Below, one piece after another: positions 1 through 19,777 of a stretch of 24,432 bases of DNA. The notes under the pieces are model-generated. The model ran no database searches. It had not been told where the DNA came from and saw only the letters and a program-made list of their open reading frames with translations. Position numbers and translations under genes: made by a program. Source of the DNA: a virus (Duplodnaviria; Caudoviricetes); IMG/VR virus record IMGVR_UViG_3300031965_000131, positions 1-24,432 of that record. One strand, 5' to 3'. Each line of letters begins with the position of its first letter. Position 1 is the first letter of the stretch.

Positions 1-22
1 GGGGTCACGTAGGCGGCTCGTC

Positions 23-241: not shown

Positions 242-1239
242 GCGGCACCCTCCTCTGCCCCCTCAGGGGGCTTCCGGCTGTTCCCGTTCCCTCCGGTGAC
301 TGCACCGCTCTCGAGGAGGGCCGCGGGCACCGGAGAATGGACCTGGCATGGACATCGGGCGCGCCGTCGGAGGTCTTCTTCTTCAAGACGTGCCCTTCCG
401 GCCTCCCAGAACCGCTCCAGAGCGCCGCCGACCTTCTTGGCCAGGCCCAGGGGCTCGCGAAGCCTCTCCATCTCGACCGAGAGATCCGGGCAGCTCCACT
501 CCTCGAGAGGGGTCTCCAGGCGTCTTGAGTCGGCGAGCCGCTCCTGGATCCAGGCCTCGGGGTCGCGGACGCCCTTGTGGGCTTCGGCGAGACGAAGGAG
601 TTCCACGCTGAGTCGATCGATCTGCTCTGGAGCCGCCTCGAGGCGGGCGAAGAGGTCTAGCAAGCGGCGGGCCAGAATCTGGCCATAGAGCCGCTCCAGG
701 ACCGCCCGAGCCGGTCCCGCTGTAGTAGAAGTAGATGTAGAAGTAGGAGTCCGTCGACCCCGTCCGGTGTGACCAGGGGTTAACGGCAAGTGTTGTTGAG
801 CACTTACGGCTTCTTCAGACGGAACTGCAGGTGGAACCCAGGCGGAACTGACCCGGAACTCAGGCGGAACTGACCCGGAACTCGAAAAAGATGAAAAAAA
901 ACGATCGGCGGCCCGGCGCCAGACCGAATCGGGGGTCTCGACGGCCGGGTTGTACTCGATGATCCGGACCCCGCGCTCGCCCCGCCCAACCACCGTCACG
1001 ATCCCCCACTCGATGAGCCGGCCGAGCATCTTCCGGTATTGGCGGTCCGTCCGCCGGTGCCCCCGCCTGGCCATCCGGCCCGGATGGAACGGGAACGGCC
1101 CGTCGACCTTCCACCTGGACGAGTGGGTGATGCGGGCCGTCTCACACATGTCCAGGATCTCCTGGGCAGTCGGTGTGAGCATCGGGACGGGGAAGCCCGC
1201 ACGCCGCGCTTCCATGCGCCAGCCGCGTCGACGGCTCAC
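238..1239 (-). CDS. Phage replication initiator (N-terminal winged HTH, lambda O-like organisation)
   Basis: N-terminal wHTH-like segment (QYRKMLGRLIEWGIVTVV); low-complexity linker containing DNA iterons and a TSTSTST tract; helical C-terminal domain; lies in the early operon. Confidence 0.6.
   Translation of the reverse strand: MSRRRGWRMEARRAGFPVPMLTPTAQEILDMCETARITHSSRWKVDGPFPFHPGRMARRGHRRTDRQYRKMLGRLIEWGIVTVVGRGERGVRIIEYNPAVETPDSVWRRAADRFFSSFSSSGSVPPEFRVSSAWVPPAVPSEEAVSAQQHLPLTPGHTGRGRRTPTSTSTSTTAGPARAVLERLYGQILARRLLDLFARLEAAPEQIDRLSVELLRLAEAHKGVRDPEAWIQERLADSRRLETPLEEWSCPDLSVEMERLREPLGLAKKVGGALERFWEAGRARLEEEDLRRRARCPCQVHSPVPAALLESGAVTGGNGNSRKPPEGAEEGAA
821..902. repeat. Iteron array, putative replication origin inside the initiator gene
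   Basis: GGAAC at 821, 833, 844, 855, 866 and 877 (11-12-bp period); exact tandem GGCGGAACTGACCCGGAACTC at 841 and 863; adjacent A-rich tract 885-901. Confidence 0.7.
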
Positions 1240-1514
1240 GGCCGGGCTCCTTCCTCGGGCGTGCGGGTTCTTTCCTCGGTGTGGGCGTGGGGTGGGCAGT
1301 AAAGGATTGGCTCGGCCTCAGCGGAGGCCCCGAGGGCGTGGAGGTCGCAGAGGCGCCGGTCGCAGGTCCTGGCCCGGCCTCCACGGCGGACGGGGTAACG
1401 GCAGAGGTGGCGGCCTGGCAGCCCGCAGTAATGGCAGAGGGGCCGCCGGCTCGCCCTGGGCCCGCAGGACAGCGCCATTGTCCCGTCCGGGAACCTTTGG
1501 ACCTGATAGCCCAT
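1236..1514 (-). CDS. Small Cys/His-rich (Zn-binding) phage protein
   Basis: Start reassigned to ATG 1514 after a GGAGG RBS; CHYC...HLC...TCDRRLCDLH...YCPPH pattern; GTGA overlap with the next gene. Confidence 0.7.
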   Translation of the reverse strand: MGYQVQRFPDGTMALSCGPRASRRPLCHYCGLPGRHLCRYPVRRGGRARTCDRRLCDLHALGASAEAEPILYCPPHAHTEERTRTPEEGARP

Positions 1515-1533
1515 CTTGAGCCCTCCGTGGCTC

Positions 1534-1773
1534 TCAGAGATCCCCGTTGTGGCCTTCTGTGGGGGGCCTGCACCCCCTATGGGCAAACTGAAACGACCTG
1601 GCACGTTGGAGCCACTTCTCGACTCGAGCTGGGCACTCGAGGCGTTCTTGGGCCCCGCAGCGCCTGCAAACGAACCCGAACGGCTCTTGGGATCCGTCCG
1701 TGGCTCGAATCCAAGTCGCTCGGGACGCCACCGGCGACGATCCCGAGCCCCCACGATCCAACTTCCTCATCAC
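1534..1773 (-). CDS. Small Zn-ribbon phage protein
   Basis: CRRC and HRGC motifs; GTGA overlap with the upstream gene. Confidence 0.6.
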   Translation of the reverse strand: MMRKLDRGGSGSSPVASRATWIRATDGSQEPFGFVCRRCGAQERLECPARVEKWLQRARSFQFAHRGCRPPTEGHNGDL

Positions 1774-2065
1774 TGGGGCCTCCGAGGCGGGGCAGGCTCG
1801 AGCGTGTCCATGGGATCGACGCCCGCGAACCTCCGGGCCGCCTCGAGCTCGCGCAGGAGCTCGACCAGGAGCCGGTCGAGCTCGGAGAGCTCGCGGGGGC
1901 CGACGATGTCTGGACAGGGTGATGCCCTCCCCACCCAGGCCGTTGTCATAGGGCCCCAGCTCGCCGCAGGCGGCACAGCGGACGACGTCGCCCGGTTCCG
2001 GGTGCCGCGCCCCGCCGGCCGACGGCGATCGCTGCCTGGGTCTTCTTACGGGGGCTGCTTCTCAT
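1770..2065 (-). CDS. Hypothetical protein, probably one gene with two +1 indels
   Basis: ATG 2065 overlaps the upstream stop (ATGA). Three frames join as MRSSPRKK.../GDVVRCAACGELGPYDNG.../CPDIVGPRELSELD...; 296 nt minus 2 is a multiple of 3. Confidence 0.4.
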
Positions 2066-2472
2066 GGCTGGTTTTCCGGAGGGTAGTTCGACCAGATGGC
2101 GCCACCAGCCTCATGGCTGCCGGCGTGGCCCCGAGGAAGTACGCAGATGAGCACGACGTCTTTCAGAGAGACGAGCTCGTCAGGGGGCGCAGTCATTCCG
2201 CAGCCCGGACCCGTTGCTTCGACAGGCAGTTGCCGCTGTTCGTCTTCGACGTCGGCGCACCAGTCGTCGTGCTGCCGCTGGAATGCGGCTCCGAGCAGCT
2301 CGAAGAAGGGGCCGGGGTCAACGAAACACCGGAAGCCCCGTTGGTCGGATGGCGTCGCGGCGGAGCCTTCTTCGAGGTCTTCTTCTTGGTTGAGCTCGGC
2401 GACCTTGAAGTCGAGCTGGAGCAGGCCACGCTGGATGACCTCGACGCTCTCGAGAATCACTTGATCTCCCAT
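2062..2472 (-). CDS. Hypothetical phage protein with C-terminal CxLPxGHxGxH motif
   Basis: GGAGG RBS; 136 aa; motif CVLPRGHAGSH. Confidence 0.7.
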   Translation of the reverse strand: MGDQVILESVEVIQRGLLQLDFKVAELNQEEDLEEGSAATPSDQRGFRCFVDPGPFFELLGAAFQRQHDDWCADVEDEQRQLPVEATGPGCGMTAPPDELVSLKDVVLICVLPRGHAGSHEAGGAIWSNYPPENQP

Positions 2473-2475
2473 GGT

Positions 2476-4119
2476 TCATTTCCTCCCGCTATGCTTCGAT
2501 GCCTTCTTCTTGGGCGCTTTCTTCTCCAGCTGCCGGCGGACTCTGGCGGCGATCGCCTGACGGTTGACGCCGAGAGCCTTGCAGGCCAGATCCACGGGTG
2601 CTTTGCCGGGAGACACGTCCCAGGTGGAATGGATGATCCACCCGCTCACGAGTAGCTCGAGGGCCAGGAGGCGCGCCTCGGCCGAGGTCATCTTGCCCAG
2701 GAGCGCACGGAGCGCACCACAGTGATCAGGCCCACCGAAGCGGCGCTTGGGCGGCTCAATTCCGCGGCGTCGACAGACTTCTCTCGCGGCGTCCGCCCAG
2801 ACCTCCGCAATGACGCCGGCGGCCACGGCGTGCCAGATCTCGGTCTTCTCCTGATGCTCCGCCGCGGTCATGACCTCGGCCACGACAGCGCGTCCGGCTT
2901 CGACTTGGGCCAGGCGCTTGCGCCGCTCCACAGTGTTGCGACTGTCGCCGGCGCGCTCCCTCGCCGTGGCGCGCTTCGCCCACTCGTACTTCGACCCCAG
3001 AGCCGCGGCGGCCTCCTTCCGCGGCACCAGCTCGTGGACCACTCCGTCCTCGCCGACAGCGACGACGCCCCCACCCAGATCCTCGATGGTCTTCTTGCCG
3101 AGAAGCTGGCGGAGCGGTCGGATCTTCGGGTCCAGATGCTCACGTTCTGAAAGGTTTAAGTAACTGCCGCTCCCCAAGACCCCAGCCCCGCGGATCGCCT
3201 TCTCGGCCTCCTTGCCCTCGAGGACCGTTCGACCCATCGCGGCAGCCTCCTCGAGCGCCCTCGTCTGGAACGCTTCGCGCTTCTTGCCGAAACAGGAGTG
3301 GTCGAGACAGGAGTCGTTGCGGGAGGTGTCCCCGAAGAGCTCAGGCTGGGCGCCAGTCCGTTTGGGGCAGGTGGAACAGGCGCCGGCCTCGGGCACGAGC
3401 TCGGCGTCGGTGAGCTTCCAGGGCGCCGCCCTGAGGTACGTCATGAAGTCCTCTGCGGCCTCTTTCGCCTCGGCGAGCGTCATGGGCTCGACGCACACTC
3501 CGCTGAATCTCTGCATGGGCTTCCCCGTTCGGCCATCGACGCCCGCGAACCTCCGGGCCGCTTCGAGCTGCTGGTCGGAGGCGAGCTTCGTAACCAGGAG
3601 CGCCGTCGCGGCCGTCAGCCGGCCGCCGGTGAAGAGCCGCCGGGCCTCGTCGGGGAGCCTGATCAGCTGGAGGCGGCTGTAGATGTAGGCTTTGCTCTTC
3701 CCCACCTGGGCGGCGAGGTCCTCGACGGGGTGGCCGTGGAGTTCATGGAGCTGGCGGTAGCACTCAGCCTCTTCGAGTGGGTGGAGATCCTCGCGCTGGA
3801 GGTTCTCGATGATCATGAGTTCGATCGCCTGGCGGTCGTCGAGCTCCCGGATGACGACGGGAAGCCACTCCAGGCCCGCCTCCCGCGCGGCGCGCAGCCG
3901 CCGATGGCCGGCCAGGACCTCGAGGGTGTCCCCCGTCCCGTTGCGACGGACGACAAGGGGTTGGAGTATCCCGTAGGAGCGGACCGACTCCACGAGCTCG
4001 GCCATCCTGGCTGGGTCCACGGTCCGGCGGGGGTTGAGCTTCGACTCGCGGAGCGTCGAGATTTCGACGCTAGCCAAGGCTCCGTGCTTGGGCGCGTCGG
4101 TGGTCGGGTTCGTTTCCAT
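2476..4119 (-). CDS. ParB/RepB/Spo0J-family protein (PRTRC-like, with Cys cluster)
   Basis: NPRR, ELVESVRSYGILQPLVVR, LAGHRRLRAA (CTP-binding box), IENLQREDLHPLEEA, HTH, then CSTCPKRTG...CLDHSCF. Confidence 0.92.
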   Translation of the reverse strand: METNPTTDAPKHGALASVEISTLRESKLNPRRTVDPARMAELVESVRSYGILQPLVVRRNGTGDTLEVLAGHRRLRAAREAGLEWLPVVIRELDDRQAIELMIIENLQREDLHPLEEAECYRQLHELHGHPVEDLAAQVGKSKAYIYSRLQLIRLPDEARRLFTGGRLTAATALLVTKLASDQQLEAARRFAGVDGRTGKPMQRFSGVCVEPMTLAEAKEAAEDFMTYLRAAPWKLTDAELVPEAGACSTCPKRTGAQPELFGDTSRNDSCLDHSCFGKKREAFQTRALEEAAAMGRTVLEGKEAEKAIRGAGVLGSGSYLNLSEREHLDPKIRPLRQLLGKKTIEDLGGGVVAVGEDGVVHELVPRKEAAAALGSKYEWAKRATARERAGDSRNTVERRKRLAQVEAGRAVVAEVMTAAEHQEKTEIWHAVAAGVIAEVWADAAREVCRRRGIEPPKRRFGGPDHCGALRALLGKMTSAEARLLALELLVSGWIIHSTWDVSPGKAPVDLACKALGVNRQAIAARVRRQLEKKAPKKKASKHSGRK

Positions 4120-4655
4120 CAGTCCTCCAGTTTCAGATTGAAGGTCTTGTCGTGCGCGACGTAGAGGCCACGACCGGTGCGGCGTACCAAGCGGAGAGCC
4201 ACCATCCCGTACTTGTAGCGAAGCAAAGCGTCCGCGACGTTCTTCCGAGTGCTGAGCGGCCTGGTAGTGGCTCTCAGGGCCGCTAGGATCTTGGCCCCGC
4301 GTCGCTCCTTCGACAGCCGGCCGACGACGAGGGGGAGCACAGCCGTGCCTTTGCCACTGGTGTCGCCAGAAGGGGGCGAACCGTTCCGACGCCGGCGCGC
4401 GCGGGGGCCCTTGCTTTCCCCTGGTCCCAGGATGGCCCGGGTAACCTTCGATTCGTCGGCGCCGTGCGTGACCAGTTCCATCTTCGGTGCAACTACCTCC
4501 GGGTCCGGCTTTGGGGGCCGATTGTCCGCCGCGGTGATAGAGGTGGTGGGACGAGAAGGTGGAGCCTCCCCGCGGAGGCGACGGATCAGCTCCACCAGGT
4601 CGTCCAAAGTTTCTATGTGGATCCGGATGCCAGCGACTTCGACTTGATAGCTCAT
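4119..4655 (-). CDS. Hypothetical protein, possibly with a C-terminal DNA-binding (wHTH-like) domain
   Basis: Start reassigned to ATG 4655 (ATGA overlap, GGAGG RBS); C-terminal LVRRTGRGLY. Confidence 0.6.
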   Translation of the reverse strand: MSYQVEVAGIRIHIETLDDLVELIRRLRGEAPPSRPTTSITAADNRPPKPDPEVVAPKMELVTHGADESKVTRAILGPGESKGPRARRRRNGSPPSGDTSGKGTAVLPLVVGRLSKERRGAKILAALRATTRPLSTRKNVADALLRYKYGMVALRLVRRTGRGLYVAHDKTFNLKLED

Positions 4656-4993
4656 TGCGATTCCCTCCGACGCTCCGAGTACCAATCCTCGAGCGGCCCG
4701 TCGCCGAGGCCGAAGCGCGCTCGGATACCGGCGGCGTTGCACCGCTGACCCCTTCCCGTTCCGTCAGGAAGCGTGTGATCTCGCCGGGACCTCCTCGGCG
4801 GGTCTGACCCGAGAGGAACCTCCCGCCCCGAGGCGAGTGACAGACCCGCCTCGCATCGGGGGCAACAGATGTGACAGGCTTCGATTGCGGTCAGGGCTTC
4901 GGTGCAGGCCAGGCAAGTCCGCCCTCCGCCGAGCCACTGCCGGAAGTCGTAGACCCGCAACCCGCATCGGTCGCACTTCTGCGTCCTGGTCAT
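4652..4993 (-). CDS. Multi-CxxC Zn-finger protein
   Basis: Internal GGAGG-N8-ATG at 4993 within the 324-aa ORF; CDRC, CLAC, CHICCPRC. Confidence 0.5.
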   Translation of the reverse strand: MTRTQKCDRCGLRVYDFRQWLGGGRTCLACTEALTAIEACHICCPRCEAGLSLASGREVPLGSDPPRRSRRDHTLPDGTGRGQRCNAAGIRARFGLGDGPLEDWYSERRRESQ

Positions 4994-5626
4994 ACCTCCG
5001 TCCTCCCCGGGGACAAGAGGACCCAAGCCGAATTCATTACGGCAGAGAAGGCAGGTGGATCTCCGAGGTCCTCGCGTGCCTCTTTTTCCACGCTGGTTTA
5101 AGCGCCGCGACGCGGCCGCACCAGGAAGCGTCTCCTCGGGCCCGCCAGATGGATCTTGCCCACAGGACCCACGAGCACCGTCCCGGAGCGTCTGCGTCAT
5201 GAATACCACTGACGACAATACCGTGTTCTGGGGCGATGCGGTTCCAGCCTCTCCACAGCAGGCGCTGCAGAGATCGGCCTCGACCCAGTAGCAGGAGCTC
5301 CCAGTTCGCTCGACGCAGTCTCCGCAGTCGTCGTCGGTACAGCCGCACACACGGCAGCGACGGGCGTCGACGGGTGAGGATTGCCCCGATAGCAGGCGGA
5401 GCAGCTCCCCTTCACCGGCGAGCTTCTTGTGGATCAGTTCGAGGACCTCACCGACGTGACCAGTTGAAGCGGCCTCGGAGAGGTAGGTGTGGTAGAGATG
5501 AGGGGGCTGGCGATGCTCAGTTTCAAGAAACTCGGCGAAGCCGATCAGCTGATCGGCGACGCCTCGCATCTCCTTCGTGCTTCGGAATGCGAGTGTGAAG
5601 CCGAAGGGAGTTACGATCCCGAACAT
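4994..5626 (-). CDS. Cys-rich hypothetical protein(s); boundaries uncertain
   Basis: CRVCGCTDDDC...CYWVEADLCSAC motif typical of phage early genes; the middle part may contain compensating indels. Confidence 0.5.
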
Positions 5627-5886
5627 GAGGCTGCCCTCCTTTGGTGGTGCTCGTCCGTGGCCTGGCGTATGAACGTACTGACGTCCTCAAGACACCCGCC
5701 ACTCCAGACGGTCTCTGGCACCGGGTAAAAGCAGTAACTGCGCCAGGCCCCATTCCACCTGACCTGGCCTAGAACGTCGCCGGTCCGATTGTTCTGGATC
5801 GACCACCGGTGTGTTTTCGCCCCCGGTCGGGTTCCGTTGCTGTCTTCGCACTCGAAGTGGATGAATAAGAACTGTGTCCTCATCAC
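5611..5886 (-). CDS. Conserved hypothetical phage protein
   Basis: LGQVRWNGAWRSYCFYP...GCLEDVSTFI resembles a recurrent phage family; GGAGG RBS. Confidence 0.75.
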   Translation of the reverse strand: MMRTQFLFIHFECEDSNGTRPGAKTHRWSIQNNRTGDVLGQVRWNGAWRSYCFYPVPETVWSGGCLEDVSTFIRQATDEHHQRRAASCSGS

Positions 5887-6191
5887 TTCCTCCGGCCTCT
5901 TTCCAGAGAGTCAGAAAGCGCGATGGTCGCCTCTGCGATGCACCGGCATTGCCCGTCGTGGTCGGTGCAGCGTGACTGGGTTCCGAACCAGAGGTAGAAG
6001 TTCCGCGTATGAGTTGCGCCTCGGATCACGCCTTCCCTGCGTGCCGGTTCGTCGATGGCGACGCGCACACTCCGGACAACCGCCGCGACGCTGAAGACCA
6101 AGGCGGACGAAACGACAGCGGAAGTCACAGCCAAGAGGACCAGGCGAGACGCCACGAGTGGGATTCGATCGCGCCGGCGGCTTGGCCTCAT
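5883..6191 (-). CDS. Small membrane protein
   Basis: Start ATG 6191 (ATGA overlap); one hydrophobic segment LVLLAVTSAVVSSALVFSVAAVV. Confidence 0.6.
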   Translation of the reverse strand: MRPSRRRDRIPLVASRLVLLAVTSAVVSSALVFSVAAVVRSVRVAIDEPARREGVIRGATHTRNFYLWFGTQSRCTDHDGQCRCIAEATIALSDSLERGRRK

Positions 6192-6448
6192 AGCAGTCCC
6201 TCGCGGGCTACGCGGCGGGCGCGGTAATCGATTCCCCGAAGCTGACGGCAAGTCCGATGCCACAGTCGGCAAAACCTAGCGGCCCTGGTTCGATGGCCGA
6301 CGACGTCGGAGGCCCACGCCGCGTATCCCGCGCTCGCGAAGTCGTCACTCCCGGCAGTTGCAGCCACACGTCGGGCTTGGGTCAGCGCCTCGCGGTAGAG
6401 CCGGTAGAAGCCGTCTCGGCGCCGCTTGATGATCTCCAACGAGATCAC
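6188..6448 (-). CDS. Hypothetical protein
   Basis: GTG 6448 overlaps the upstream stop (GTGA) and the ORF fills the operon gap exactly. Confidence 0.6.
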   Translation of the reverse strand: MISLEIIKRRRDGFYRLYREALTQARRVAATAGSDDFASAGYAAWASDVVGHRTRAARFCRLWHRTCRQLRGIDYRARRVAREGLL

Positions 6449-6999
6449 GGCGCCGATCCCCCTTGGTGCAGGCGCACGATCTCTCCCGTCCCCCCGCACT
6501 CCGAGCACGTGATGGGTTTGATGATCCCCAGCTTCACCGAGAGGTCTGAACCGGGAGGCAGCTCCTCCCACGCGCGCCACGGAGTTCCGTCGTCGTCGTT
6601 TGCGATCTTCCCGCAGCCGTCGCAGGTCTGGCATTTCACGACTGACGATTCAGCACCGATCGTTTCTTCCAGGTCGTCGTCCTCTATCCCGGTGTTGTCC
6701 CCTTCTTGAGGAGCCTCGGTCGGAGGAGTTCCTGTCGATTGAGGAAGCTCCCATCGCTGGATCGGCGCGGGCGCCTGGATCACGGCTGCCCGCGCAACCT
6801 CCTCGCTCGTGGGGTGGATTCCGTAGACGGAATCGGGGTTGTAAAACTGGCTGACGATCGGCTCGGCCTGGCCCGCCGAGAAGAGATCGATTCGGATGAA
6901 TCCTTTGCCGGCGATGTCCTGCTCGGTCATGCGACCCACAAGCCGACGGTGACCCATGAGCTCGAGGACGCCCCATTGATTGAACTGCTGATCGCTCAC
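6445..6999 (-). CDS. Conserved phage protein with C-terminal DnaJ-type Zn finger
   Basis: WGVLELMGHRRLVG...FIRID...QFYNPDSVYGIHP N-terminal domain; CQTCDGCG and CSECGGTG repeats. Confidence 0.8.
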   Translation of the reverse strand: MSDQQFNQWGVLELMGHRRLVGRMTEQDIAGKGFIRIDLFSAGQAEPIVSQFYNPDSVYGIHPTSEEVARAAVIQAPAPIQRWELPQSTGTPPTEAPQEGDNTGIEDDDLEETIGAESSVVKCQTCDGCGKIANDDDGTPWRAWEELPPGSDLSVKLGIIKPITCSECGGTGEIVRLHQGGSAP

Positions 7000-7346
7000 G
7001 TGATCTCCCCTTCCTCTCCGGCTGGAGCCAGTGGCAGGGGCAGGAGCTCTTGGTAAGCCTCGAGCTTCATGTCCCGGCGGCGCTGGAACAGGACCGAGGA
7101 GTAGGACTTGATGGAAGGGACGCTGGCCTTGCAGACGATACCGAGCTCTGCGACGTCTCGGTCCTCCGAGGGCTTGAACGTGAATTCGAGGACAATTTTT
7201 CGGGTGGCCTTGGCCCGTGTCCTCGGATCGTCGATCGAGTCGAGGACCTCCCGGAGCTTCACGGCGAAGAAGGTCCCGGCCGCTCCACCCCCGATCAAGC
7301 CCAGTGGGACGTTTGTTAAGGCCGGTTCCTTGTCCTTCCTGGTCAT
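6996..7346 (-). CDS. Conserved phage early protein (family often labelled 'replication terminator protein')
   Basis: GGAAG..F...LREVLDSIDDPRTRAKATRKIVLEFTFKP.EDR pattern; AAGGAG RBS before ATG 7346. Confidence 0.7.
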   Translation of the reverse strand: MTRKDKEPALTNVPLGLIGGGAAGTFFAVKLREVLDSIDDPRTRAKATRKIVLEFTFKPSEDRDVAELGIVCKASVPSIKSYSSVLFQRRRDMKLEAYQELLPLPLAPAGEEGEIT

Positions 7347-7506
7347 CACACTCTCCTTTTCAATGCCTCCCCCCGCGCGGCGGCGAATACAGAGCCTTTG
7401 GTCACCGCCGCGCGTGGGTTTTGGTTTTCCCTTCGCCACAAGCCTGTTTTTCCACCGGTCACTTCATGGGCATCACTCTCCTTTCGTTCGAGTCCAGGGG
7501 GCTAAC

Positions 7507-7809
7507 CTAGAAGAGCTCAAGCTGACCGCGCGCCGGGCGCCACGTGATGCTGAGTCGCGCCGTGATGGCGCAGATTTTGGACGGACCGTTTTCCACGAAG
7601 CCGTTGTCACGGAGCTCGGGGAGACGTCTCGATGGGACGTGACGCTCGAGGCCCGTGTTCCGGGCGATCTCGGCCGCGGTCTGCCCTGGAAACCGCTCCA
7701 CCTCCTCGAGACAGATTTCCCGCTGGCGCCTCCCTGTTCCGTGCTCCTCGATTGCCCCAGCCGCCGCGTGTGACGTGGCGGGGTCGCTCGAACGCGCGAG
7801 GGCCATCAC
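7507..7809 (-). CDS. Winged-helix DNA-binding protein
   Basis: ARSSDPATSHAAA...PGQTAAEIA...SRRLPEL...G...C, a common phage wHTH family. Confidence 0.85.
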   Translation of the reverse strand: MMALARSSDPATSHAAAGAIEEHGTGRRQREICLEEVERFPGQTAAEIARNTGLERHVPSRRLPELRDNGFVENGPSKICAITARLSITWRPARGQLELF

Positions 7810-8101
7810 CGTGAGTCCGCCGGTAGACCGATCTCAGCCATGAGATCCAGGACCCGCTGAAGCTGGCCCCGCATCTCGCTGCTCATCAGGGCGGCGTAGT
7901 TCTGGGCCGAAGCGATGGCGATGTGCAGGTGAGCGGACTGGAGAAGTCGGAGACGCGAGAGGAGCTCAGTCTCCCCGTGGATCTTCATGGCCGAGGACGA
8001 GAGACAGATCGAAAAGCTGGCCGACGTCTGCCATGGCGCGTCCTTTGGGCGATTGGGACGAGCGTCGTCGCCTGATGCAGGCTCATCGCCTCCTCGAACA
8101 T
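7806..8101 (-). CDS. First early gene, hypothetical helical protein, probably with two +1 indels
   Basis: GAGGG RBS and ATG 8101 (MFEEAMSL...), a middle frame (AMADVGQLFDLSLVL) and a final frame (AMKIHGETELL...); 296 nt minus 2 restores the frame. Confidence 0.45.
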
Positions 8102-8162
8102 TGCACCCTCGCGCCCGCCTGTTGCGGAAGCTCGCCTCGCGGCCGGGCACGACGGCGAGCTC

Positions 8163-8191
8163 TTGACGGGGCAAAGGCGCTGCGGTACAAC
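8163..8191 (+). promoter_or_regulatory. Putative sigma70 promoter directed at the tRNA fragment
   Basis: TTGACG-17 bp-TACAAC; the -10 is imperfect. Confidence 0.5.
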
Positions 8192-8227
8192 TGGACCTGT
8201 CCATGGTGGCCTCCGGTCTTGTGGCGG

Positions 8228-8422
8228 CCCCACGGAGCTAACTTGTTGTACTAACCCCTCTTTGAAAGGCTCGCAATCCTATCGATCGACGGGGGCCGTA
8301 GTTCAGTCTGGTTAGAACGCTGGCCTGTCAAGCCAAGGTTCCAAACCAGGTCCCCGAGATAGGGTTCGCGGGCTAACTTTCTGAAGGGCATGTTGTTCCC
8401 AAGTCGGAGTTAGCTCGTGGGG
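8228..8422 (+). ncRNA. Putative long rod-like RNA hairpin with the tRNA anticodon loop at its apex
   Basis: Nested pairings 8228-8243/8408-8422, 8264-8268/8377-8381, 8268-8274/8368-8374, 8275-8283/8358-8366, 8291-8297/8349-8355 (or 8308-8313/8344-8349), 8321-8324/8332-8335; several mismatches are G-U on the + strand. Confidence 0.55.
8292..8335 (+). other. 5' half of tRNA-Asp(GTC), putative attP core
   Basis: GGGGCCG-TA-GTTC AGTCTGGTTA GAAC-G-CTGGC CTGTCAA GCCA: canonical acceptor 5' strand, D arm and anticodon arm, but no proper T arm, acceptor 3' strand or CCA; ~320 bp downstream of the integrase. Confidence 0.8.
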
Positions 8423-8458
8423 CGCCCGGTGTTCGTTGCACCGGGCGTCCACTTTTTT
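8420..8458 (+). terminator. Rho-independent terminator
   Basis: 12-bp GC stem GGGCGCCCGGTG/CACCGGGCGTCC with a 7-nt loop, followed by ACTTTTTT. Confidence 0.8.
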
Positions 8459-8466
8459 AACACCCC

Positions 8467-8589
8467 GAAACAGATTCGACCCCACAAAAAGAATCCGCCG
8501 TTGAAAGCTGAATCGGGTGAGAACCTGATTCGCGGCGGATCGATCGTGGGGTCGAAGCTGTTTCATCCTCACCCTCCCTTCAGCTTTCG
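8467..8589 (-). promoter_or_regulatory. Structured leader with alternative pairings (attenuator-like)
   Basis: Pairings 8467-8473/8558-8564, 8475-8485/8546-8556, 8493-8500/8533-8540 and 8510-8518/8523-8531, versus 8503-8512/8579-8588 plus 8515-8521/8568-8574. Confidence 0.6.
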
Positions 8590-8595
8590 GGAGTC

Positions 8596-8625
8596 ATCCT
8601 AATTGCGCCACGTCGGCGCCCGCAA
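8596..8625 (-). promoter_or_regulatory. Putative leftward (early) sigma70 promoter
   Basis: TTGCGG-18 bp-TAGGAT preceded by a T-tract; the predicted start (~8589) matches the 5' edge of the structured leader. Confidence 0.5.
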
Positions 8626-8654
8626 GAAAAAAACTCAGGGCCGGAGGAAGTATT

Positions 8655-9526
8655 TTATAACCCCAAGTCCAGAACCTCGATCCGCCGGCTCTCCCAGTCC
8701 GGTGAAGCGAGCACATAGCCCATCGTCGACTGGATTCGGCGGTGGCCCATCCACTGTTGGACGACCGCGAGCGGGGTATTGGCCATGACGAGCCGCGTCG
8801 CGAAAGTCCGCCTCAAATCGTGGAGCGTGCAAGGCTCGATCCCGCCGCGGGCCGCTGCCCGGGCGAGGGCCTTGCGGACATCGACGAACGGACGCCCGGT
8901 CGCCGGGTTGGGGAAGATCCACGGCTGGGCCGTGGGCAGCCGCTCCGCGATGATCTCCCGCGCGGGGCGGGCGAGCGGGAGGTTCAGGCGGCGGCGCCCT
9001 TTGCTGACGACCAGGTGGAGGACCGTGCCCCCGTGGGTGACCTGGTCGCGCTGGAGATCGAGCGCTTGCCGCTTCCTGAGCCCGGTGTAGTACACGATCG
9101 CGAAGATGTCCGCGAACGGTTGTTCGGCAGCCATGATCAGGCGGGTGATCTCATCCTCCGTCAGGGCTCGGCCGGCTGTCTCCGGGACGGGAAGGAACGC
9201 CGGCGCCGGCGCGCCTGTCGCTCCCGCCTTTGAGGATTCCCCACCGTCTTGATCTCGACAGGATCCGGCAGACGAGCCGAAGGCAGTGATTGACCGTCTG
9301 ATGGGAAAGGCCCTTCTGGAGCAGCTTTCCAGCGAATTGATCAAGGGTCTCGTCCTGTTATACACTGCCCTGGCACGTCACCGAGGAGCGGGAGAAGGTG
9401 ATTGCGAAGCCTGGACTCATCGGTCGCGTGAGATGTGAGGCGGTTGCGGCTCCAGTCGCGGAGCCATCGGTCGGCGAGGACGGAGAAGCCGACAGTGGTC
9501 GACTTCAGAAGCGGCTCCCTGGCCAT
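8655..9526 (-). CDS. int: Tyrosine integrase (~289 aa), frameshifted twice (sequence error or pseudogene)
   Basis: Core-binding domain split over two frames (FSVLADRWL...LRNHLLPLLGD / DETLDQFAGKLLQKGLSHQTVNHCLRLVCRILSRSRRWGIL); catalytic TGLR, SK, HDLRR, MGH and TMGY in a third frame. Confidence 0.9.
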
Positions 9527-9644
9527 GGATCTGTCTCTCCCATGACCGTCCCTGGCGTGACGAACTCTTCCTTGAAGGGTGACCACGACGGGACCCGAGC
9601 GGGGAGGCGAGGCTTGCGGCTGTCAGCCCAGGGTTGAGGTCGTT

Positions 9645-9673
9645 AATCTACCAAAGAGAAGGCTCTAGGTCAA
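9645..9673 (-). promoter_or_regulatory. Integrase promoter
   Basis: TTGACC-17 bp-TAGATT with an extended -10 TG. Confidence 0.7.
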
Positions 9674-9786
9674 TGGGGGCCACTTTTAGGAGGTTGATTC
9701 AAAATGTACTACTGTCTGCAGTGCGGAGGGACTCCGGATCGGTTGAAGACCAGGACCCGAAGCCCTCAAGAACCGCGCGAAGGAGG

Positions 9787-10380
9787 TCACACCCCCCGCA
9801 GCCTCGCCCTGACGCTCCCCGCCAGCTGATCCTCGAGGCTCTTGGGCGGAGCCGGGGTCTCGTTTCCGGTGATGCGCGAGACCCACTTGCTCATGGCGCC
9901 GCGCTTCTCCGCCGACCGGCCGATCGTGTAGACACCGACGACGCCCGCCCAGACCCAGAGGAAGTCGGAAAGGATCTGGTTCGAGGCGTCGAGGATCTGC
10001 TGAAAGACCGCCTCGGTCCCGCCGACCAGGTGCTGGAGCACGATGTAGCGCAGCCCAAGGATCTCTCCGAGGACGATCACGACGAGGCCGCTGTAGATGA
10101 CCGTCGGTCTCGCCCGCTTCGTGAAGTTGTCACCTTGCTGGATTTCCGCGAGCATGACGTCCCGCCGCGCGGCGATCTCCGAGCGTACCGTCTCCTCGAC
10201 GCCTTTTTCGTACTCGGCGACGACGGCGCCGATCTGCAACTCGTATTCGCGCTTGGCCGCCTCCGCCGCCGCGCGGGCCGCGGTCTTCTCGTCGGCCGTC
10301 TGAACGAAACGGTCCACGCCATCGGCGACGCCGTCGATGAGGCTCTTCCCGACCCCGACTAACTTATCGATGAGTCCCAC
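9787..10380 (-). CDS. Holin, GTA 3TM-holin-like
   Basis: VDRFVQTADEK, coiled segment, FTKRARPTVIY, hydrophobic helices and GVYTIGRSAEK; directly after the endolysin. Confidence 0.8.
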   Translation of the reverse strand: MGLIDKLVGVGKSLIDGVADGVDRFVQTADEKTAARAAAEAAKREYELQIGAVVAEYEKGVEETVRSEIAARRDVMLAEIQQGDNFTKRARPTVIYSGLVVIVLGEILGLRYIVLQHLVGGTEAVFQQILDASNQILSDFLWVWAGVVGVYTIGRSAEKRGAMSKWVSRITGNETPAPPKSLEDQLAGSVRARLRGV

Positions 10381-10784
10381 TGCGCACCTCCTTGCTGAAA
10401 GATCTCGAGCTGAAAGGGGAAATCCCCGTAGAGCCCGAGAAACGCCTCGAGGGCCTCCCGACTCTCAAGCACCGCCCAAAGTCCTCCGAGCGATCCGAGC
10501 CGGTTACCGAGTGCAATGCAGCCCTCGACGTCGTGCATGGTGTTCCCGCGGTGGAATAGAATATGGGAGCGGCCGGGCACGCCGAGGACCTCCACCGTGT
10601 CGTAGCCTCCACGGTTGTAGCGTCTGGGCTCGCACCTATACGTGCCCTCGGGGATGCAGGAGATGCTGGGCCTATTGTCGAGCCACGGCCGCTCCACCGT
10701 GTAAAGGGTGAACTCCCCCAGGTTGAGGCGCCCGAACGTGCCCATGGGCGAGTAACAGAATCGTCCTAGTCGATGGGTTATCAT
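10359..10784 (-). CDS. DUF5675-family putative L,D-peptidase endolysin
   Basis: GTFGRL...TVERPWLDN...SCIPEGTY...VPGRSHILFHRGN...EGCIALG signature. Confidence 0.88.
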   Translation of the reverse strand: MITHRLGRFCYSPMGTFGRLNLGEFTLYTVERPWLDNRPSISCIPEGTYRCEPRRYNRGGYDTVEVLGVPGRSHILFHRGNTMHDVEGCIALGNRLGSLGGLWAVLESREALEAFLGLYGDFPFQLEIFQQGGAQWDSSIS

Positions 10785-11050
10785 GGGATCATCCTCACGA
10801 GTCTTTCGAGGAGCTTGCGGATCATCGTCCGGTCCTCCTCGCCGATCGGTGCGGGCGGCCCTGCCGCTCCCGAGAGTTGGTTCTGCGCGACGATCGTCTC
10901 GAGCCTTTCGATCCTCTGACCGCGCAGGTGATAATCCTCGACCGCGTCGAACACGATGGGGGCGAGGAGCGGGAGGAGTTTCAGAGCCGTCCGCCTCGTA
11001 AGGCGGACCCGGACCGTGAAGCCTCCTCCATCAGTCGACCCGGTCCCCAT
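10781..11050 (-). CDS. Small lysis-module protein (one hydrophobic segment plus coiled coil)
   Basis: GGAGG RBS; lies between lysis genes. Confidence 0.6.
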   Translation of the reverse strand: MGTGSTDGGGFTVRVRLTRRTALKLLPLLAPIVFDAVEDYHLRGQRIERLETIVAQNQLSGAAGPPAPIGEEDRTMIRKLLERLVRMIP

Positions 11051-11642
11051 GTCCTGACCTCCCCGAGGCGACGCTCACGCCTAGGAGGATGAACAGAACC
11101 GCGGTGTAGAGCGCCATCCCCGTCGCTAAGCCTTCGACGTAGCCCGACAGGATCGGGAGTCCGGCGAGGATACCCAAGAGGGCAAGGATGGAGACGCCAG
11201 CAGAGGCACTGACGATCCACCGCCAGGGTTTACCGAACATCCAGCAGACCCCTCCGATCCCCACGCACATGAAGCCGAAACCCGTCAGTGGGCTCGGCTG
11301 ACCGCGGACGATGTACGGCAGATCCAGGGCAAGGACATCGAAAGCGCGGATGAGACGGACCATCCCGCCACCCCCTGGCTGAAACGAGTCCACGACGAGC
11401 CCAATAAGGCCGAAAGACGCCGCTGCGCCGACGAACTCCGACCACTCGCCCAGACCGTCGCCCGAGGCCACGTAGACGACGATCCCGGCAAGGATGAACC
11501 CCACCGCGGTCACGGGTAGTATCGGTGTCATGCTGTGCCATGGGGCTCGGAGGACGGCCTGTCCAAGAATCCAGCCGCCGGCGAGGATGACGAGTCCGGC
11601 GGCCGAGACGAGGATCGGAAGGAACTTAAGAAGCTGCTTCAT
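11031..11642 (-). CDS. Multi-pass membrane protein resembling the N-terminal membrane sensor domain of histidine kinases/diguanylate cyclases
   Basis: ATG 11642 (ATGA overlap); motifs GWILG..VL, PVTAVGFILAG, PSPLTGFGF, GMALYTAVLFILLG; about 6 hydrophobic helices. Confidence 0.7.
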   Translation of the reverse strand: MKQLLKFLPILVSAAGLVILAGGWILGQAVLRAPWHSMTPILPVTAVGFILAGIVVYVASGDGLGEWSEFVGAAASFGLIGLVVDSFQPGGGGMVRLIRAFDVLALDLPYIVRGQPSPLTGFGFMCVGIGGVCWMFGKPWRWIVSASAGVSILALLGILAGLPILSGYVEGLATGMALYTAVLFILLGVSVASGRSGHGDRVD

Positions 11643-11827
11643 GTTCGCCCTGCTGCCAGCGTGATGATCCACGTCAGGAGCGCCGTGAATCCGGCGACGG
11701 TGATGGCGATCACGCCACCGACGACGGCGCGCCGGATCGTGCGCATCGACTCCTCGAGCCCCGTGACACGCGTTTCTAGAACGATGAGGATGTCGTGATC
11801 GGATCGGTTATCGACCATGCTCTCCAT
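11639..11827 (-). CDS. XhlA-like holin/hemolysin
   Basis: Short coiled coil (LETRVTGLEE) followed by a single C-terminal TM segment; first gene after the tail tip. Confidence 0.65.
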   Translation of the reverse strand: MESMVDNRSDHDILIVLETRVTGLEESMRTIRRAVVGGVIAITVAGFTALLTWIITLAAGRT

Positions 11828-11866
11828 GCCCTTCCTCGTCTCCCGTCTGCCAGGACGAAGACTTTC

Positions 11867-14320
11867 TTACACCCGATCGAACTCCCATTCGATTTCTCGG
11901 ATCGCCACGTGGGTCCGGGTGGCTCCCCACGTCTTGATCTTCACCCGCAGGTGATTGTTCAGCCGCCCGAGCCCCGACTCGGAGATCTCGAGCGCCTCGT
12001 CGTAGGTCCAGGACGTGCCCGTAACTCCGATCTCGGTGTGGACGAGGGTGTCGAGTTCCCCGTAGACGAAGATGTCGTACTCGGTCAGTGGTTCCGCGGC
12101 GTCGGTCTTCCCGGAGTCGGAGTAGCTCCACGTTCCGAGCCGGTTGCGGTGCGACCACGACACCGTCAGCTCCCCGCTGATCGACGCGGGATAGCCGACG
12201 TCGTTGAATTCGACGGCGGTCGGACAGTAGACCCGTTCGGATCGGGGAGGGTCCTGGGCCACGACCAGAGAATCGAGGCAGGAGTTGAACGGGAATTCAC
12301 CCGAGTTGTTGTAGGGCTGGAAGCGTAAGTCGTTGTTGATCGAGGCGCTTGGCGGGACGGGGCCCAAGATGTTCAGGATCTCGCTGCCGTATGACAGAAA
12401 CCAGACCCGGGTGCCGGACGGGTAGGCGGTCGGCGCCGTGTCGAGACACCCGCGGGCGAGGACCTGCAGCGTCACGGTCCCGTCTCCCTGGACGACGTCC
12501 CGGAACGCGATGAACTCCTCGAAACCTCCTGACTCCAACCAGGCGACGTTGATGCCCCGCGAGTAATCCGGGGCGCTGACCGAGTCCACGCGGCCGCTGT
12601 CGGGTCCAGAGATCACGACGATCTCGTCGGTCAGCTCGTCGATGGCGGATTGCAAAGTCCCAGACGGCGTGAGGAATGGGACCGTGTAGGGCACGAACCA
12701 TCCCCCCTCCGGCCTCTTGACGTGGACCTTGTAGCCCATCGTGATGCCGACCGCTCCCCGCGCGGCCACCACCACCGCCTGCTGGACGTCCGCTCCCTGG
12801 TAGCCGTAGTCCTTCACGGCCTCGTAGGGGGCCGACATCGCGCCCTGGTCGGTGAGGGCCGGGACGTCGCCGGCGGGATCCTCCCAGCCGGTGGGCGGCG
12901 GCGGCGTGTAGCCGGTCCAGGACACCCCGAAGACGTCTTCCATGGCCTCGATCTGGATCCGGCCCGAGTCGAGCCGGCCGGTCCCGACGCGGACGACGCG
13001 GCAGACCATCCCCAAGATCCCCAGGGGCGGCCAGACGAGCTTGAAGACCGTGCCGGGTCGAAAGCTCCAGGCGGAGCGGTCGGCCTCGATCGTGAGCGTC
13101 GCGAGCGGGTAGGAGAGAGCCGCCAGCGCCCGGGCGGCGCCCTTCTGGGCGTTCGTCGCGGTTGAGAACCCCCTCATCGTCAGTTCCTGGACGGAGACCT
13201 CTCCGCCCTGCAGCTCGATCGAAGCCAGGTCCTGGGCCTGGACCGTCTTCTCCACGAAGCCGCCGGCGCGGTCCACGTAAGGGACGCGGATCTGGTTCTT
13301 CAACTCGCCCCAGGAGGGCCGGCCGAAGGAGGTGACGGTGCAGGAGTCGGAGTCGAGGACGGGCAGGTCCTCCTCGTCGTAGTCGAGGCGGACGAGCCGG
13401 ATCGTGAGGAGCCCGCTCGAGGGCTCCACGTAGATGATCCCGTCGATGTGGCGGAGGATCTCGATGATGAGGTCCCTCGCCGGCGTCGTCTGGTCCTGGA
13501 GCATGGAGAGGCCGAACTCCTCGGTCGCGAGGGTCTGACCCACGGAGCGGAAGGCGTCGAGGTCGAGGAAGCCCGCCGGGAGACCAAGGCCGTTGTCCGA
13601 CGGCGCGCTCGTCAGGAGGTCGTAGATCATGTTGGCGGGGTTGGCGTCCCCGTCGATATTGTGGGCGCCTCCGCTGAGGCCGAGCCCGTTAGGGCACCGC
13701 CTGACGACGGCAGCGACGGGTTTGATGTAGGGACTTGTCCCCAGGTAGACATGGCGGAAGACGGCGTAGCAGATCCGTCTCCAACCCGGCAGGTCCTCCC
13801 CAAGTGCGGCCTCGAGGTAGTCGTCGGCCGTCTGAACCGGTGTCCCGCGGTAGACGAAGACGTCGCCGACAACACCTCCATCGGACTCCTCACCGCCGAA
13901 GAGGTTGGGCTCTTGGATCAAGATCTCGGTCCGATCCGCCTGCACGTCGAACGAGACGTTCACGGGGACCCGGTCATCGAAGCGCAGCTCGAGGATCTCG
14001 TCGATTTCACCTGAGCACAGGACGAGCTGAATCCCCAGGGAGTACCGGTAACCGGTGGTGACGTTGGTCGATGAGAAGAGGCCGGTCCGGACCCGCTCCT
14101 TGATCGCCTGCACCTCGAGATCCCCGTACCAGGTGACCATGGGGCCCGCGATCTTGCATGTGCCCCACACAACGGGGATCGCCCGGCCCTCCCCTATCGT
14201 CGGGAACTGGAAATCGCCGAGCGCGGAGGGCGCCGGCGTGTCGAACTTGGGCTTGGGCCGCAAGACCTCGTAGAGGAGCGTCCCCACGACGTAGATGAGC
14301 GCCGTGACCCACCACGCCAT
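11867..14320 (-). CDS. Tail tip / central tail hub protein (phage-tail_3 type)
   Basis: Start ATG 14320; FQFPT.EGRAIPVVWGT...WYGD, DANPANMIYDLLT, RGCLDTAP and SWSHRNR motifs. Confidence 0.9.
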   Translation of the reverse strand: MAWWVTALIYVVGTLLYEVLRPKPKFDTPAPSALGDFQFPTIGEGRAIPVVWGTCKIAGPMVTWYGDLEVQAIKERVRTGLFSSTNVTTGYRYSLGIQLVLCSGEIDEILELRFDDRVPVNVSFDVQADRTEILIQEPNLFGGEESDGGVVGDVFVYRGTPVQTADDYLEAALGEDLPGWRRICYAVFRHVYLGTSPYIKPVAAVVRRCPNGLGLSGGAHNIDGDANPANMIYDLLTSAPSDNGLGLPAGFLDLDAFRSVGQTLATEEFGLSMLQDQTTPARDLIIEILRHIDGIIYVEPSSGLLTIRLVRLDYDEEDLPVLDSDSCTVTSFGRPSWGELKNQIRVPYVDRAGGFVEKTVQAQDLASIELQGGEVSVQELTMRGFSTATNAQKGAARALAALSYPLATLTIEADRSAWSFRPGTVFKLVWPPLGILGMVCRVVRVGTGRLDSGRIQIEAMEDVFGVSWTGYTPPPPTGWEDPAGDVPALTDQGAMSAPYEAVKDYGYQGADVQQAVVVAARGAVGITMGYKVHVKRPEGGWFVPYTVPFLTPSGTLQSAIDELTDEIVVISGPDSGRVDSVSAPDYSRGINVAWLESGGFEEFIAFRDVVQGDGTVTLQVLARGCLDTAPTAYPSGTRVWFLSYGSEILNILGPVPPSASINNDLRFQPYNNSGEFPFNSCLDSLVVAQDPPRSERVYCPTAVEFNDVGYPASISGELTVSWSHRNRLGTWSYSDSGKTDAAEPLTEYDIFVYGELDTLVHTEIGVTGTSWTYDEALEISESGLGRLNNHLRVKIKTWGATRTHVAIREIEWEFDRV

Positions 14321-15123
14321 CAGTCGATCCTCCCGGTGAAGGGGTTCCGGCCCGGAAGGCGCGACCACCCAAGGTGGTTGACGAGGTTGTCGAACTTGCC
14401 GAGGCAGGTGGCCTCGAGGTGGTCGCAGCCCCAATAAGCCCAGACCTCATCGAGGGAGGCGAGCCCGGGGAGGGGGGAGATGAGCGTGACGGTGTCTCCG
14501 ACGTGGTCCGCTATGAAACGTGTCTCGCTCGACTCCTGATTGACGAGCCGTCCCGCGCTGAACCATCCATCGGGCCGAAGCGCGAAGTCGTTCGAGACGA
14601 CGGTCTTTCCGTCGACGGTCGTCACGGTGATGGGATCCCGAGACGTCGTCGGGTTCGCGCCGCACCCGGCCGAGTAGAGGACGTGGTTGCAGGGGTTCTG
14701 CATGGCGAGCACCGGCACGGGCCGGGAGAGGAGCGCCATGAGGCTCGCGCCGACTAGGACCGCCTGGGACTCCTCGAAGCGAGCCCGGATGATCCGGCCG
14801 CTGTAGATCGCCACGGCCAGGCTCTCCTCGCCTCGGTGAGCCCTGTAGACGGTGACCCACATGGGGCTCGATGGGAGATCTCCGATAAAGGGGGTGGCGA
14901 TGGGATTAGTCCGCGACACCGCAAACTCAATCGTCTCCCCCGTGTCCTCCTGAGAGAAGTCGAGCTCGGTGCGCGTGATGACCTCGGGCGTGAAGCCGCC
15001 CGACGGCAGCGTGATCTCGCGGTCGGCCGAGGTGAAGAGCCACGTCTGGTCTCCCAGCGCGAAGCGGAATCCCTCGACCGGCTGGCCAGCATGGCGGCTC
15101 TTCTCTCTGGCGTCGTAGGTCAT
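14320..15123 (-). CDS. DUF2163 / BR0599-family tail hub protein
   Basis: FTSADREI...CNHVLYSAGCG...GCDHLEATC..KFDNLVNHLG...P..NPF. Confidence 0.9.
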   Translation of the reverse strand: MTYDAREKSRHAGQPVEGFRFALGDQTWLFTSADREITLPSGGFTPEVITRTELDFSQEDTGETIEFAVSRTNPIATPFIGDLPSSPMWVTVYRAHRGEESLAVAIYSGRIIRARFEESQAVLVGASLMALLSRPVPVLAMQNPCNHVLYSAGCGANPTTSRDPITVTTVDGKTVVSNDFALRPDGWFSAGRLVNQESSETRFIADHVGDTVTLISPLPGLASLDEVWAYWGCDHLEATCLGKFDNLVNHLGWSRLPGRNPFTGRID

Positions 15124-15740
15124 ACGGGCGCCTCGAGGGGGATCTCACGAGCCAAGATCGTCGCCTCGGCGAGGTTCCCGGTGGGATAGGAGATCTCCAC
15201 GAGGTCCTCCTCGAGGCGGCAGAGCTTGAGGAACGAGATCACCGTGTCGGCCTTCGGGTAATCCCGGACGGCGATCGGATCGAGGGTCACGGTTTCCGTG
15301 ATTTCGTCGGCTGGGTCGGTCGCGTCGGCGACCCGGTAGAAGTCCATGGAGCCGTTCCGCAAGGTCCAAAAGGCCAGATGCCGGCGGGCACCGGTGGTCC
15401 CCCACATCTGCTGGCGGAACCGGACCCAACGGATCGTGACGATCGATTGATCCTCGAGGACGTCCTCGGCGAGAGACAGGTCCCACTGGAAGCTGGGCAT
15501 CCAGAAGGGGATGGCGCGGCCGACCCGGGCGTCCAGGAAGGCCCGCATTTCGGCGATCTCGGGGCGTCCGAAGGCGGTCCAGGTGAAGGGCCGCCCGGGC
15601 GCCGGCGCCGGCGACTGCTCGTCGGCGACGCGCTTACCGGTTTCCGAGTCGAGGAGCGCAAACTTCCTGCGGAGCCGCTCCTCGATCGCCCCCAACCGGT
15701 TGTAGTTGAGGTCGAGGACCTCGTAGCCCAGGTAGGTCAT
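15120..15740 (-). CDS. Virion structural protein, C-terminal half of a D3112-type distal tail protein
   Basis: ATG 15740 (ATGA overlap); TYLGYEVL, FLDARVGRAIPFWMPS..DLSL, ISFLKLCRLEED. Confidence 0.8.
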   Translation of the reverse strand: MTYLGYEVLDLNYNRLGAIEERLRRKFALLDSETGKRVADEQSPAPAPGRPFTWTAFGRPEIAEMRAFLDARVGRAIPFWMPSFQWDLSLAEDVLEDQSIVTIRWVRFRQQMWGTTGARRHLAFWTLRNGSMDFYRVADATDPADEITETVTLDPIAVRDYPKADTVISFLKLCRLEEDLVEISYPTGNLAEATILAREIPLEAPV

Positions 15741-15991
15741 GGGAGAACCCATTCAATGAGAGCGGACAGGACGCCCCCAAGGGCCCACGGAAGGACGTCG
15801 AGGAGCGCGGGGCGCCACTTCCCGCCGCTCAACCGCTCCGAGAGGACTTCCCACGCGATGCCCAGAATCGCGGCCACCGGGATCGCCACGAAGGATTGAC
15901 CGGCGAGCTGCGCGGCGAGGAGGCCGCCCAGCGCTCCCCAGGCGACGTGGGCGGAGAACGACTCCGTCTTTTTTCCCAGCAGTCGCGTCAC
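15737..15991 (-). CDS. Small (84 aa) membrane protein inserted in the tail module
   Basis: GTG 15991 overlaps the upstream stop and its own stop overlaps the next ATG; three hydrophobic segments, H..WG and GIAWE...D motifs. Confidence 0.75.
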   Translation of the reverse strand: MTRLLGKKTESFSAHVAWGALGGLLAAQLAGQSFVAIPVAAILGIAWEVLSERLSGGKWRPALLDVLPWALGGVLSALIEWVLP

Positions 15992-17064: not shown

Positions 17065-17067
17065 CGT

Positions 17068-18135: not shown

Positions 18136-18137
18136 TT

Positions 18138-19775: not shown

Positions 19776-19777
19776 CT

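Follow-up and report, generated by a model that had tools for sequence, protein, structure and literature searches.

Conservative site-specific recombination permits a precise excision that restores the host gene. A 5' tRNA fragment is recorded for 159 of 3,919 islands (~4%) in Table 1 of the Islander report (PMC4383910), and recombination at the 5' side is described as considerably less frequent in the relevant part of PMC6563490, which cites Zhao and Williams 2002 (J Bacteriol 184:859). The section on pTN3-like integrases in the Badel 2021 review (PMC8371274) states that these enzymes make use of a tRNA's 5' half, that expression of the rebuilt tRNA comes from the integrase promoter, and that bacteria seldom show the arrangement; the passages on pTN3 in PMC5495485 give a core of 41 bp and a rebuilt tRNA that loses its original promoter. 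In tRNA-dependent lysogeny, as outlined by Guerrero-Bustamante and Hatfull (2024; PMC10865867), a core of 8-17 bp is accompanied by a complete phage tRNA. Passages of the mv4 preprint, PMC11610982 and PMC11476347 contain nothing specific to the type of site described here.

The site that we analysed lies in a window of 24,432 bases (65.5% GC), which is a whole virus record. The identified genes in the window are all on the minus strand and, reading from the right end, comprise tail genes, genes for a DUF5675 protein and a holin, a tyrosine integrase gene with its stop at 8655, a non-coding gap, and then small phage-family genes and a ParB-like gene. In the tail region, one open frame at 11867-14434 spans both a match to a tail-assembly chaperone (residues 39-113, phrog_1180) and a large tail protein (phrog_1101) without an intervening stop. 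The original prediction that phage genes flank the site was borne out, with the tail, holin, DUF5675 and integrase genes to the right and the small phage-family and ParB-like genes to the left; it is DNA of the element, not of a host, that borders the tRNA fragment on both sides. We consider it probable (roughly 0.63) that the site is an attP of the reversed (5'-fragment) type, belonging to a once-temperate tailed phage and probably vestigial now. In favour of an attP we counted the exact 44-nt identity to the starts of bacterial tRNA-Asp genes, ending just past the anticodon loop; the layout, which runs from tail through lysis and integrase genes to the site and then the early genes; and the promoter-like and terminator-like sites, which are on the correct strand and bracket the half-tRNA. 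Against it we counted the -10 hexamer, which is imperfect and overlaps an ORF, the broken integrase gene, and the observation that about as many edits would also turn a tRNA 3' half into the sequence right of the anticodon loop (the right arm).

Like the Islander 5'-fragment islands, the site combines a tRNA 5' part, extending through the anticodon loop, with a neighbouring tyrosine integrase gene, but it differs in that only the unintegrated form was seen, the integrase gene is frameshifted, and an inverted repeat of ~200 nt is present, no such repeat being described in the parts of PMC4383910 used for comparison. It resembles archaeal pTN3, as described in the cited parts of PMC8371274 and PMC5495485, in the proposed use of a tRNA 5'-half core and in the proposed reading of the rebuilt tRNA from an element promoter. 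However, whereas the pTN3 attP is inside the integrase gene and its tRNA is on the integrase promoter, the candidate att core here is outside the integrase frame, i.e. not of the pTN3/SSV type, lies 320 nt past the stop of the PF00589 integrase gene, and has a separate promoter-like site; in addition, the integrase gene points towards the site from the other side. The proposal shares with tRNA-dependent lysogeny, in the outline given in PMC10865867, a lysogen for which phage DNA has to supply a tRNA of the type that was disrupted, but the element here offers a 44-nt half and there is no complete tRNA within the 24.4-kb window, which is part of a genome. The original prediction regarded the logic of this attP as unusual; a 5'-type attP does fit, but the class, although rare, is already described (Islander Table 1; PMC8371274).

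The 44-nt 5' half of tRNA-Asp(GTC), which is the candidate att common core, occupies 8292-8335 on the plus strand. An exact 38-nt pattern used as a genome query matched 15 species genomes, every match being a complete tRNA-Asp(GTC) gene; all 44 nt are common to four of these bacterial genomes, with the other 11 sharing 39-41 nt, and each of the 15 has a G and a normal 3' half at the point where the window has an A. A tRNA-Asp(GTC) 5' half is therefore present as had been claimed, with the refinement that identity to the cellular genes stops one base short of the anticodon stem's end. The anticodon loop at 8325-8331 (plus strand) is the predicted 7-bp strand-exchange region, a role assigned by reference to tRNA att sites of the anticodon-centred class. 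Read on the minus strand, the loop is also a perfect -35 hexamer, with no fitting -10 hexamer at 16-18 nt; host tRNAs have the same sequence. ARAGORN found no tRNA in the window, and the Rfam tRNA model scored 28 bits at 8292-8355, below its 29-bit cut-off, with the T region deleted in the alignment. As judged by ARAGORN, Rfam and folding, 8292-8355 lacks the 5-bp T-stem, the 7-nt T-loop and the discriminator/CCA end of a canonical tRNA; when a four-arm fold is forced, the resulting arm has 4 bp with a 3-nt loop and the fold is 5 kcal/mol weaker than the rod described below.

A promoter-like TTGACG-17-TACAAC, also claimed earlier, is present at 8163-8191 on the plus strand (TTGACG at 8163-8168, TACAAC at 8186-8191), facing the tRNA half across a leader of ~95 nt. 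It is the sole match to TTGAC-N17-19-TAnAA in the window, where 0.05 would be expected by chance and which 5 of 100 shuffles reach, the pattern having been picked after the site was already seen; it is absent from the list produced by a consensus scan because its -10 hexamer is without the last T. The promoter-like site falls within the start of an opposite-strand ORF (7806-8204, minus strand), the first of the leftward, early-type cluster, which encodes 132 residues of no known family. This ORF has a good ribosome-binding site (GGAGG 5 nt ahead of the ATG), and its coding signal in a codon model is clear in the 3' part only; a homologue search returned only itself, and an Atlas search nothing above 0.80. 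A small gene at 7507-7809 encodes a winged-helix protein that belongs to a phage family (Atlas score 0.96; phrog_1123) and, lying near the site, is a candidate regulator or directionality factor. At 8069-8118 one contig from soil run X3 switches to the opposite strand, which may reflect a small inversion or a chimera.

On the half's other side, an intrinsic-terminator-like hairpin with a 13-pair stem and a T run lies at 8420-8458 on the plus strand. Its stem is the longest of 13 terminator-like sites in 1-20000, a region in which shuffles give 10.7 sites, and the hairpin would close the plus-strand unit before it ran antisense into the integrase gene. A second long hairpin (8467-8564) and a small one (8574-8593) follow downstream of the integrase gene; the span 8467-8593 has a fold z of -8.5, is the second-best inverted-repeat window (z 8.7), and comes near the threshold of no Rfam family. 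Positions 8503-8512 are complementary to the 10-nt loop of the small hairpin (8579-8588), making a pseudoknot possible, and in a related contig from X3 (depth 3.1) the stem's one mismatch becomes a pair while a C run and a G run are both longer. Read on the minus strand, 8467-8593 gives an inner hairpin and then a T run, nested in an outer stem. This nested arrangement is reminiscent of the lambda tI/sib layout.

The tyrosine integrase gene (8655-9526, minus strand; PF00589, E 2e-22) is split over three frames, with one switch near 9360 and another between about 9230 and 9180. A profile built from 19 distant homologues matches it as three colinear pieces (positions 84-126, 143-172 and 187-361; E 0.004, 0.024 and 7e-45), and a codon model trained on the other genes of the window changes frame at matching positions but keeps each of the long structural genes in one frame. 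The catalytic domain is intact. The upstream pieces are weak singly (a Pfam SAM-like match at E 0.09, below the cut-off, and a PHROG integrase match at E 0.013), searches of the middle piece against Pfam and PHROG gave no match, and nothing above noise matched profile positions 1-80, where the N-terminal arm-binding domain of a lambda-type three-domain integrase would lie, in any frame up to 9800, a search of low sensitivity for a decayed gene.

The same phage is present in soil runs X1-X3 (X1 may be the sample behind the window) and in L142, a 38.6-kb assembly of its own that aligns to 4302-9820 over 5,520 bases with a single gap. No RNA data set is among those listed as containing the phage. 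At the frame switches, L142 and contigs of X1, X2, X3 (first switch) and X4 (second switch) all have identical letters, so that the break in the integrase gene is real; an assembly error was rejected as its cause on this agreement among four runs and L142. A minor contig of X2 (depth 3) skips 167 bases, 9307-9473, in the 5' part of the gene, which would be a further sign of decay. The split gene probably no longer yields a working integrase and, with the integrase split over three frames, the candidate attP module is probably vestigial. A promoter-like site upstream of the integrase gene (9645-9673, minus strand) is the sole consensus match in 1-20000, where shuffles give 1.5.

What sets the site apart is an imperfect inverted repeat of ~200 bases (8222-8426) centred on the anticodon loop. 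The dyad described earlier around the 7-nt loop is present as written, its arms offset by 1 nt, and proves to be the core of this much longer repeat. Alignment of the arms over 8230-8420 gives 62 matches, and the outer part of the repeat, considered without the tRNA sequence, beats 2000 of 2000 shuffles. After composition correction the repeat ranks first among 2420 windows, with z 10.9 where the background reaches at most 5.8; the raw score is barely above GC-rich chance matches (50 versus 49), and only the composition-corrected scores separate the two. The plus strand folds with a z of -3.6 and the minus strand with a z of -5.3, a stability that none of 200 shuffles reaches for either; the mismatches (five of the G-U type on the plus strand, three on the minus strand and eight others) do not clearly point to one strand as the one that folds. 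In the predicted plus-strand fold of 8198-8460, rod pairs have probabilities >0.97 and the D-stem 0.001, while the anticodon stem-loop stays formed and caps the tip of the rod (0.82-1.0); the rod is predicted at -27.9 kcal/mol, compared with -22.9 kcal/mol for a forced cloverleaf-like fold. Three of the window's four copies of the motif GCTAAC fall inside the repeat (8237 and 8372 on the plus strand, 8409 on the minus strand; range 8237-8414), and may be protein-binding sites. A hairpin end of the protelomerase type was rejected, the protein being of PF00589 and the centre an asymmetric tRNA loop.

As a control, 105 distinct whole tRNA-Asp loci were scored with the same script, and one of them (L008) has a similarly strong repeat (z 9.2, versus 8.8 for the window). 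In L008, and to a weaker degree in L013, leader and trailer pair so as to extend the acceptor stem of a complete tRNA-Asp; such leader-trailer pairing is hence uncommon, yet occurs around ordinary tRNA genes. These two loci come from Zixibacteria and an uncultured bacterium, and a separate long hairpin is present in the Val-Asp spacer of L008, L018 and L021. Literature listings on a long hairpin across a tRNA attP gave no direct description, and the older 5'-fragment and Mx9 literature may hold a precedent. The attP of myxophage Mx9 reportedly targets the 5' region of a tRNA-Gly gene and is inside int. Lambda sib is an RNase III hairpin downstream of int, from which it is separated by integration, and lies beyond att. 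The present site differs from both, in that the Mx9 attP is said to be within int, and in that sib is beyond att whereas the repeat here straddles the predicted crossover.

The mechanism suggested by this anatomy is as follows. The integrase would exchange strands in the 7-bp anticodon loop of a host tRNA-Asp gene. A whole tRNA would be rebuilt at the early-gene end of the prophage, its transcription starting from the phage promoter at 8163 and passing through the phage leader, while the leftover host 5' half would come to lie at the integrase end; there, transcription from the host tRNA promoter would be stopped by the phage terminator. In 10 of the 15 matching genomes that same host promoter serves an upstream tRNA-Val. 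The repeat spans the predicted crossover and so would be whole only in the unintegrated state, in which, according to the predicted fold, the right arm would form a long rod with the leader and half-tRNA and so conceal the D-arm; on integration the pairing would be lost and the tRNA could fold. The rod may have been selected, may be left over from an inverted duplication, or may be a set of protein sites arranged symmetrically. The original prediction that a host tRNA is rebuilt from a phage-supplied 5' half and promoter is the best fit to the anatomy, but the split integrase gene and the absence of a junction contig in five runs count against it.

The right arm, however, also has a second reading. 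Its core-proximal part (8332-8356, plus strand) mirrors the D-loop and acceptor strand of the tRNA half, but can also be read as a shrunken tRNA 3' half composed of a 4-bp mini arm and an acceptor-like strand, which makes a collapsed phage tRNA gene, the decayed phage tRNA that the original prediction named as its refutation, a real rival. On this reading the locus was a whole phage tRNA-Asp transcription unit, with promoter, leader, tRNA, trailer and terminator, in which the variable loop and T-arm collapsed, for example after death of the integrase, when a complementing tRNA of the kind used in tRNA-dependent lysogeny was no longer needed. It would account for the end-to-end Rfam alignment of 8292-8355 with a shortened T region, for the acceptor-like strand, which is in register and shares GGTCCC with the four exact-match genomes, for the likeness to the leader-trailer helices that extend the acceptor stem in L008 and L013, and for a decaying integrase gene, including the minor 167-base skip in X2; a phage tRNA beside int has a precedent in PMC10865867. 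The likeness of the right arm to host 3' halves is only modest, with 11 to 567 of 2000 shuffles being equally good across eight hosts, and the right half of the phage sequence mirrors the left half better than a host right half does. By hand count, about six edits would lead to the right arm, whether the starting point is a tRNA 3' half or the left arm copied in inverted orientation. All of the changes from a tRNA lie right of the loop and none in the 44 nt to its left, which favours an attP over a collapsed tRNA; at least six edits are needed by a rough hand count, and the chance of such a distribution, were they spread randomly over the gene of an assumed ancestor, is ~0.006. Together with the lack of a separate short att core above background, and with no relative having been found that carries a whole tRNA here, this leads us to regard the collapse as unlikely, if the strongest of the competing explanations.

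Elements of both accounts would be combined in an RNA switch set by recombination. Here a whole phage tRNA gene with a leader-trailer stem would have served as the attP, its 3' half shrinking to an antisense arm; the 200-nt rod would lock the half-tRNA of the free phage, and integration would open it to give a phage-driven host tRNA-Asp. We hold this, the boldest of the readings, to be unlikely.

It is very unlikely, in our judgement, that the free phage makes from this locus a functional non-coding RNA of ~260 nt, i.e. a long rod or a tRNA mimic with a shrunken T-arm that was kept though integration was lost, and that might serve as an Asp anticodon-loop decoy against tRNA-cutting defences, or control read-through transcripts as a regulator of the RNase III type. 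The complete promoter-to-terminator unit, the strong fold, the anticodon stem-loop formed at the tip (0.82-1.0), and the intact site beside a broken integrase gene are all compatible with such an RNA. However, there are no homologues and therefore no covariation, the mismatches favour neither strand, and two frameshifts in ~870 nt require no change in 44 nt, so that an intact site is no sign of continued selection.

To return to the reversed attP, we looked for its integrated forms, for relatives and for a host. No attL or attR junction was seen among the listed contigs of five runs, in particular none at 8325-8335, where the original prediction had placed diverging reads; instead, the site is bridged unchanged by contigs in X1 and X2, and L142 has the same form. 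Since only low-depth contigs were available, this absence weighs little. A stricter contig search of all 15 records gave loose ends only from pieces covering 8291/8292-8335 with 1-3 differences, as cellular tRNA genes would be expected to give. No tRNA-Asp half with its break at the same position was found in the viral contigs or in 120 genomes, and in metagenomes the pattern occurs only in this phage. In a broader viral scan, 127 of 127 were whole tRNAs among the matches listed; the exact 38-nt pattern had no match in viruses, and BLAST of the site against named phages returned short tRNA-Asp stretches only. As to a second short att core, none stands above background: the best look-alike, a core-like palindrome at 9616 near the integrase gene, scores 21, a value that three unrelated sites exceed and three more equal, and was rejected.

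It had also been expected that tRNA genes from the same sample would reveal the host, but the cellular tRNA-Asp contigs in the runs differ from the site by at least one letter and no host was assigned; nor can one be assigned from the four exact-match loci, which have 37-51% GC against 65.5% for the phage. In one of five genomes checked (G002) there are two matches to a tRNA-Asp-like gene, and a host may possess a second tRNA-Asp-like gene. The cost that the original prediction attached to losing that prophage end is conjectural, and precise excision would restore the host gene.

The relatives of the integrase are distant, comprising seven viral loci at 26-29% identity and, besides itself, 19 proteins at 26-34%, while 117 phage records matched at <30% identity among the matches listed. 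No relative carrying the module was found via the integrase, the flanking genes or the tail protein, although distant intact integrases may have escaped these searches. No viral relatives were found for the ORF at 7806 or for the ParB-like gene, and 80 DUF5675 loci gave no match to the integrase or att region and no tRNA. The tail protein has 41 relatives, 17 of them with at least 5 kb downstream, and searches with 290 tRNA queries found no tRNA half in any. One such relative, L258, has a XerC-like recombinase gene (19466-20476) in an early-type operon with no tRNA trace nearby. A low-threshold ARAGORN run gave only noise and was set aside.

That the integrase is without a close relative (best ~34% identity) and that phages sharing the tail protein are without the module would suit a mosaic scar, in which an integrase-bearing block recombined into a phage-borne tRNA-Asp to leave an attL-like joint, with the 3' half cut off and the repeat arising at that time, but no displaced 3' half lies elsewhere in the window (part of the genome) and the lysis and tail genes continue directly past the integrase in the usual temperate-phage order, making this the least likely of the explanations considered.

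The overall results indicate that the site is a real feature and probably a variant of a known rare class, probably vestigial, that is set apart by a long repeat across the crossover. Its value is limited, since it comes from a single phage lineage whose integrase is broken, with no host assigned and no homologues from which to judge covariation. Attachment sites of the reversed tRNA type are rare (~4% of the islands in the Islander table, PMC4383910) and have been little studied in bacteria. The site raises the questions of how such reversed sites originate and how a promoter-driven half-tRNA is handled while the element is unintegrated. The unit of promoter, leader, half-tRNA and terminator, set within a repeat that integration would break, makes these ideas testable with a 300-bp fragment.
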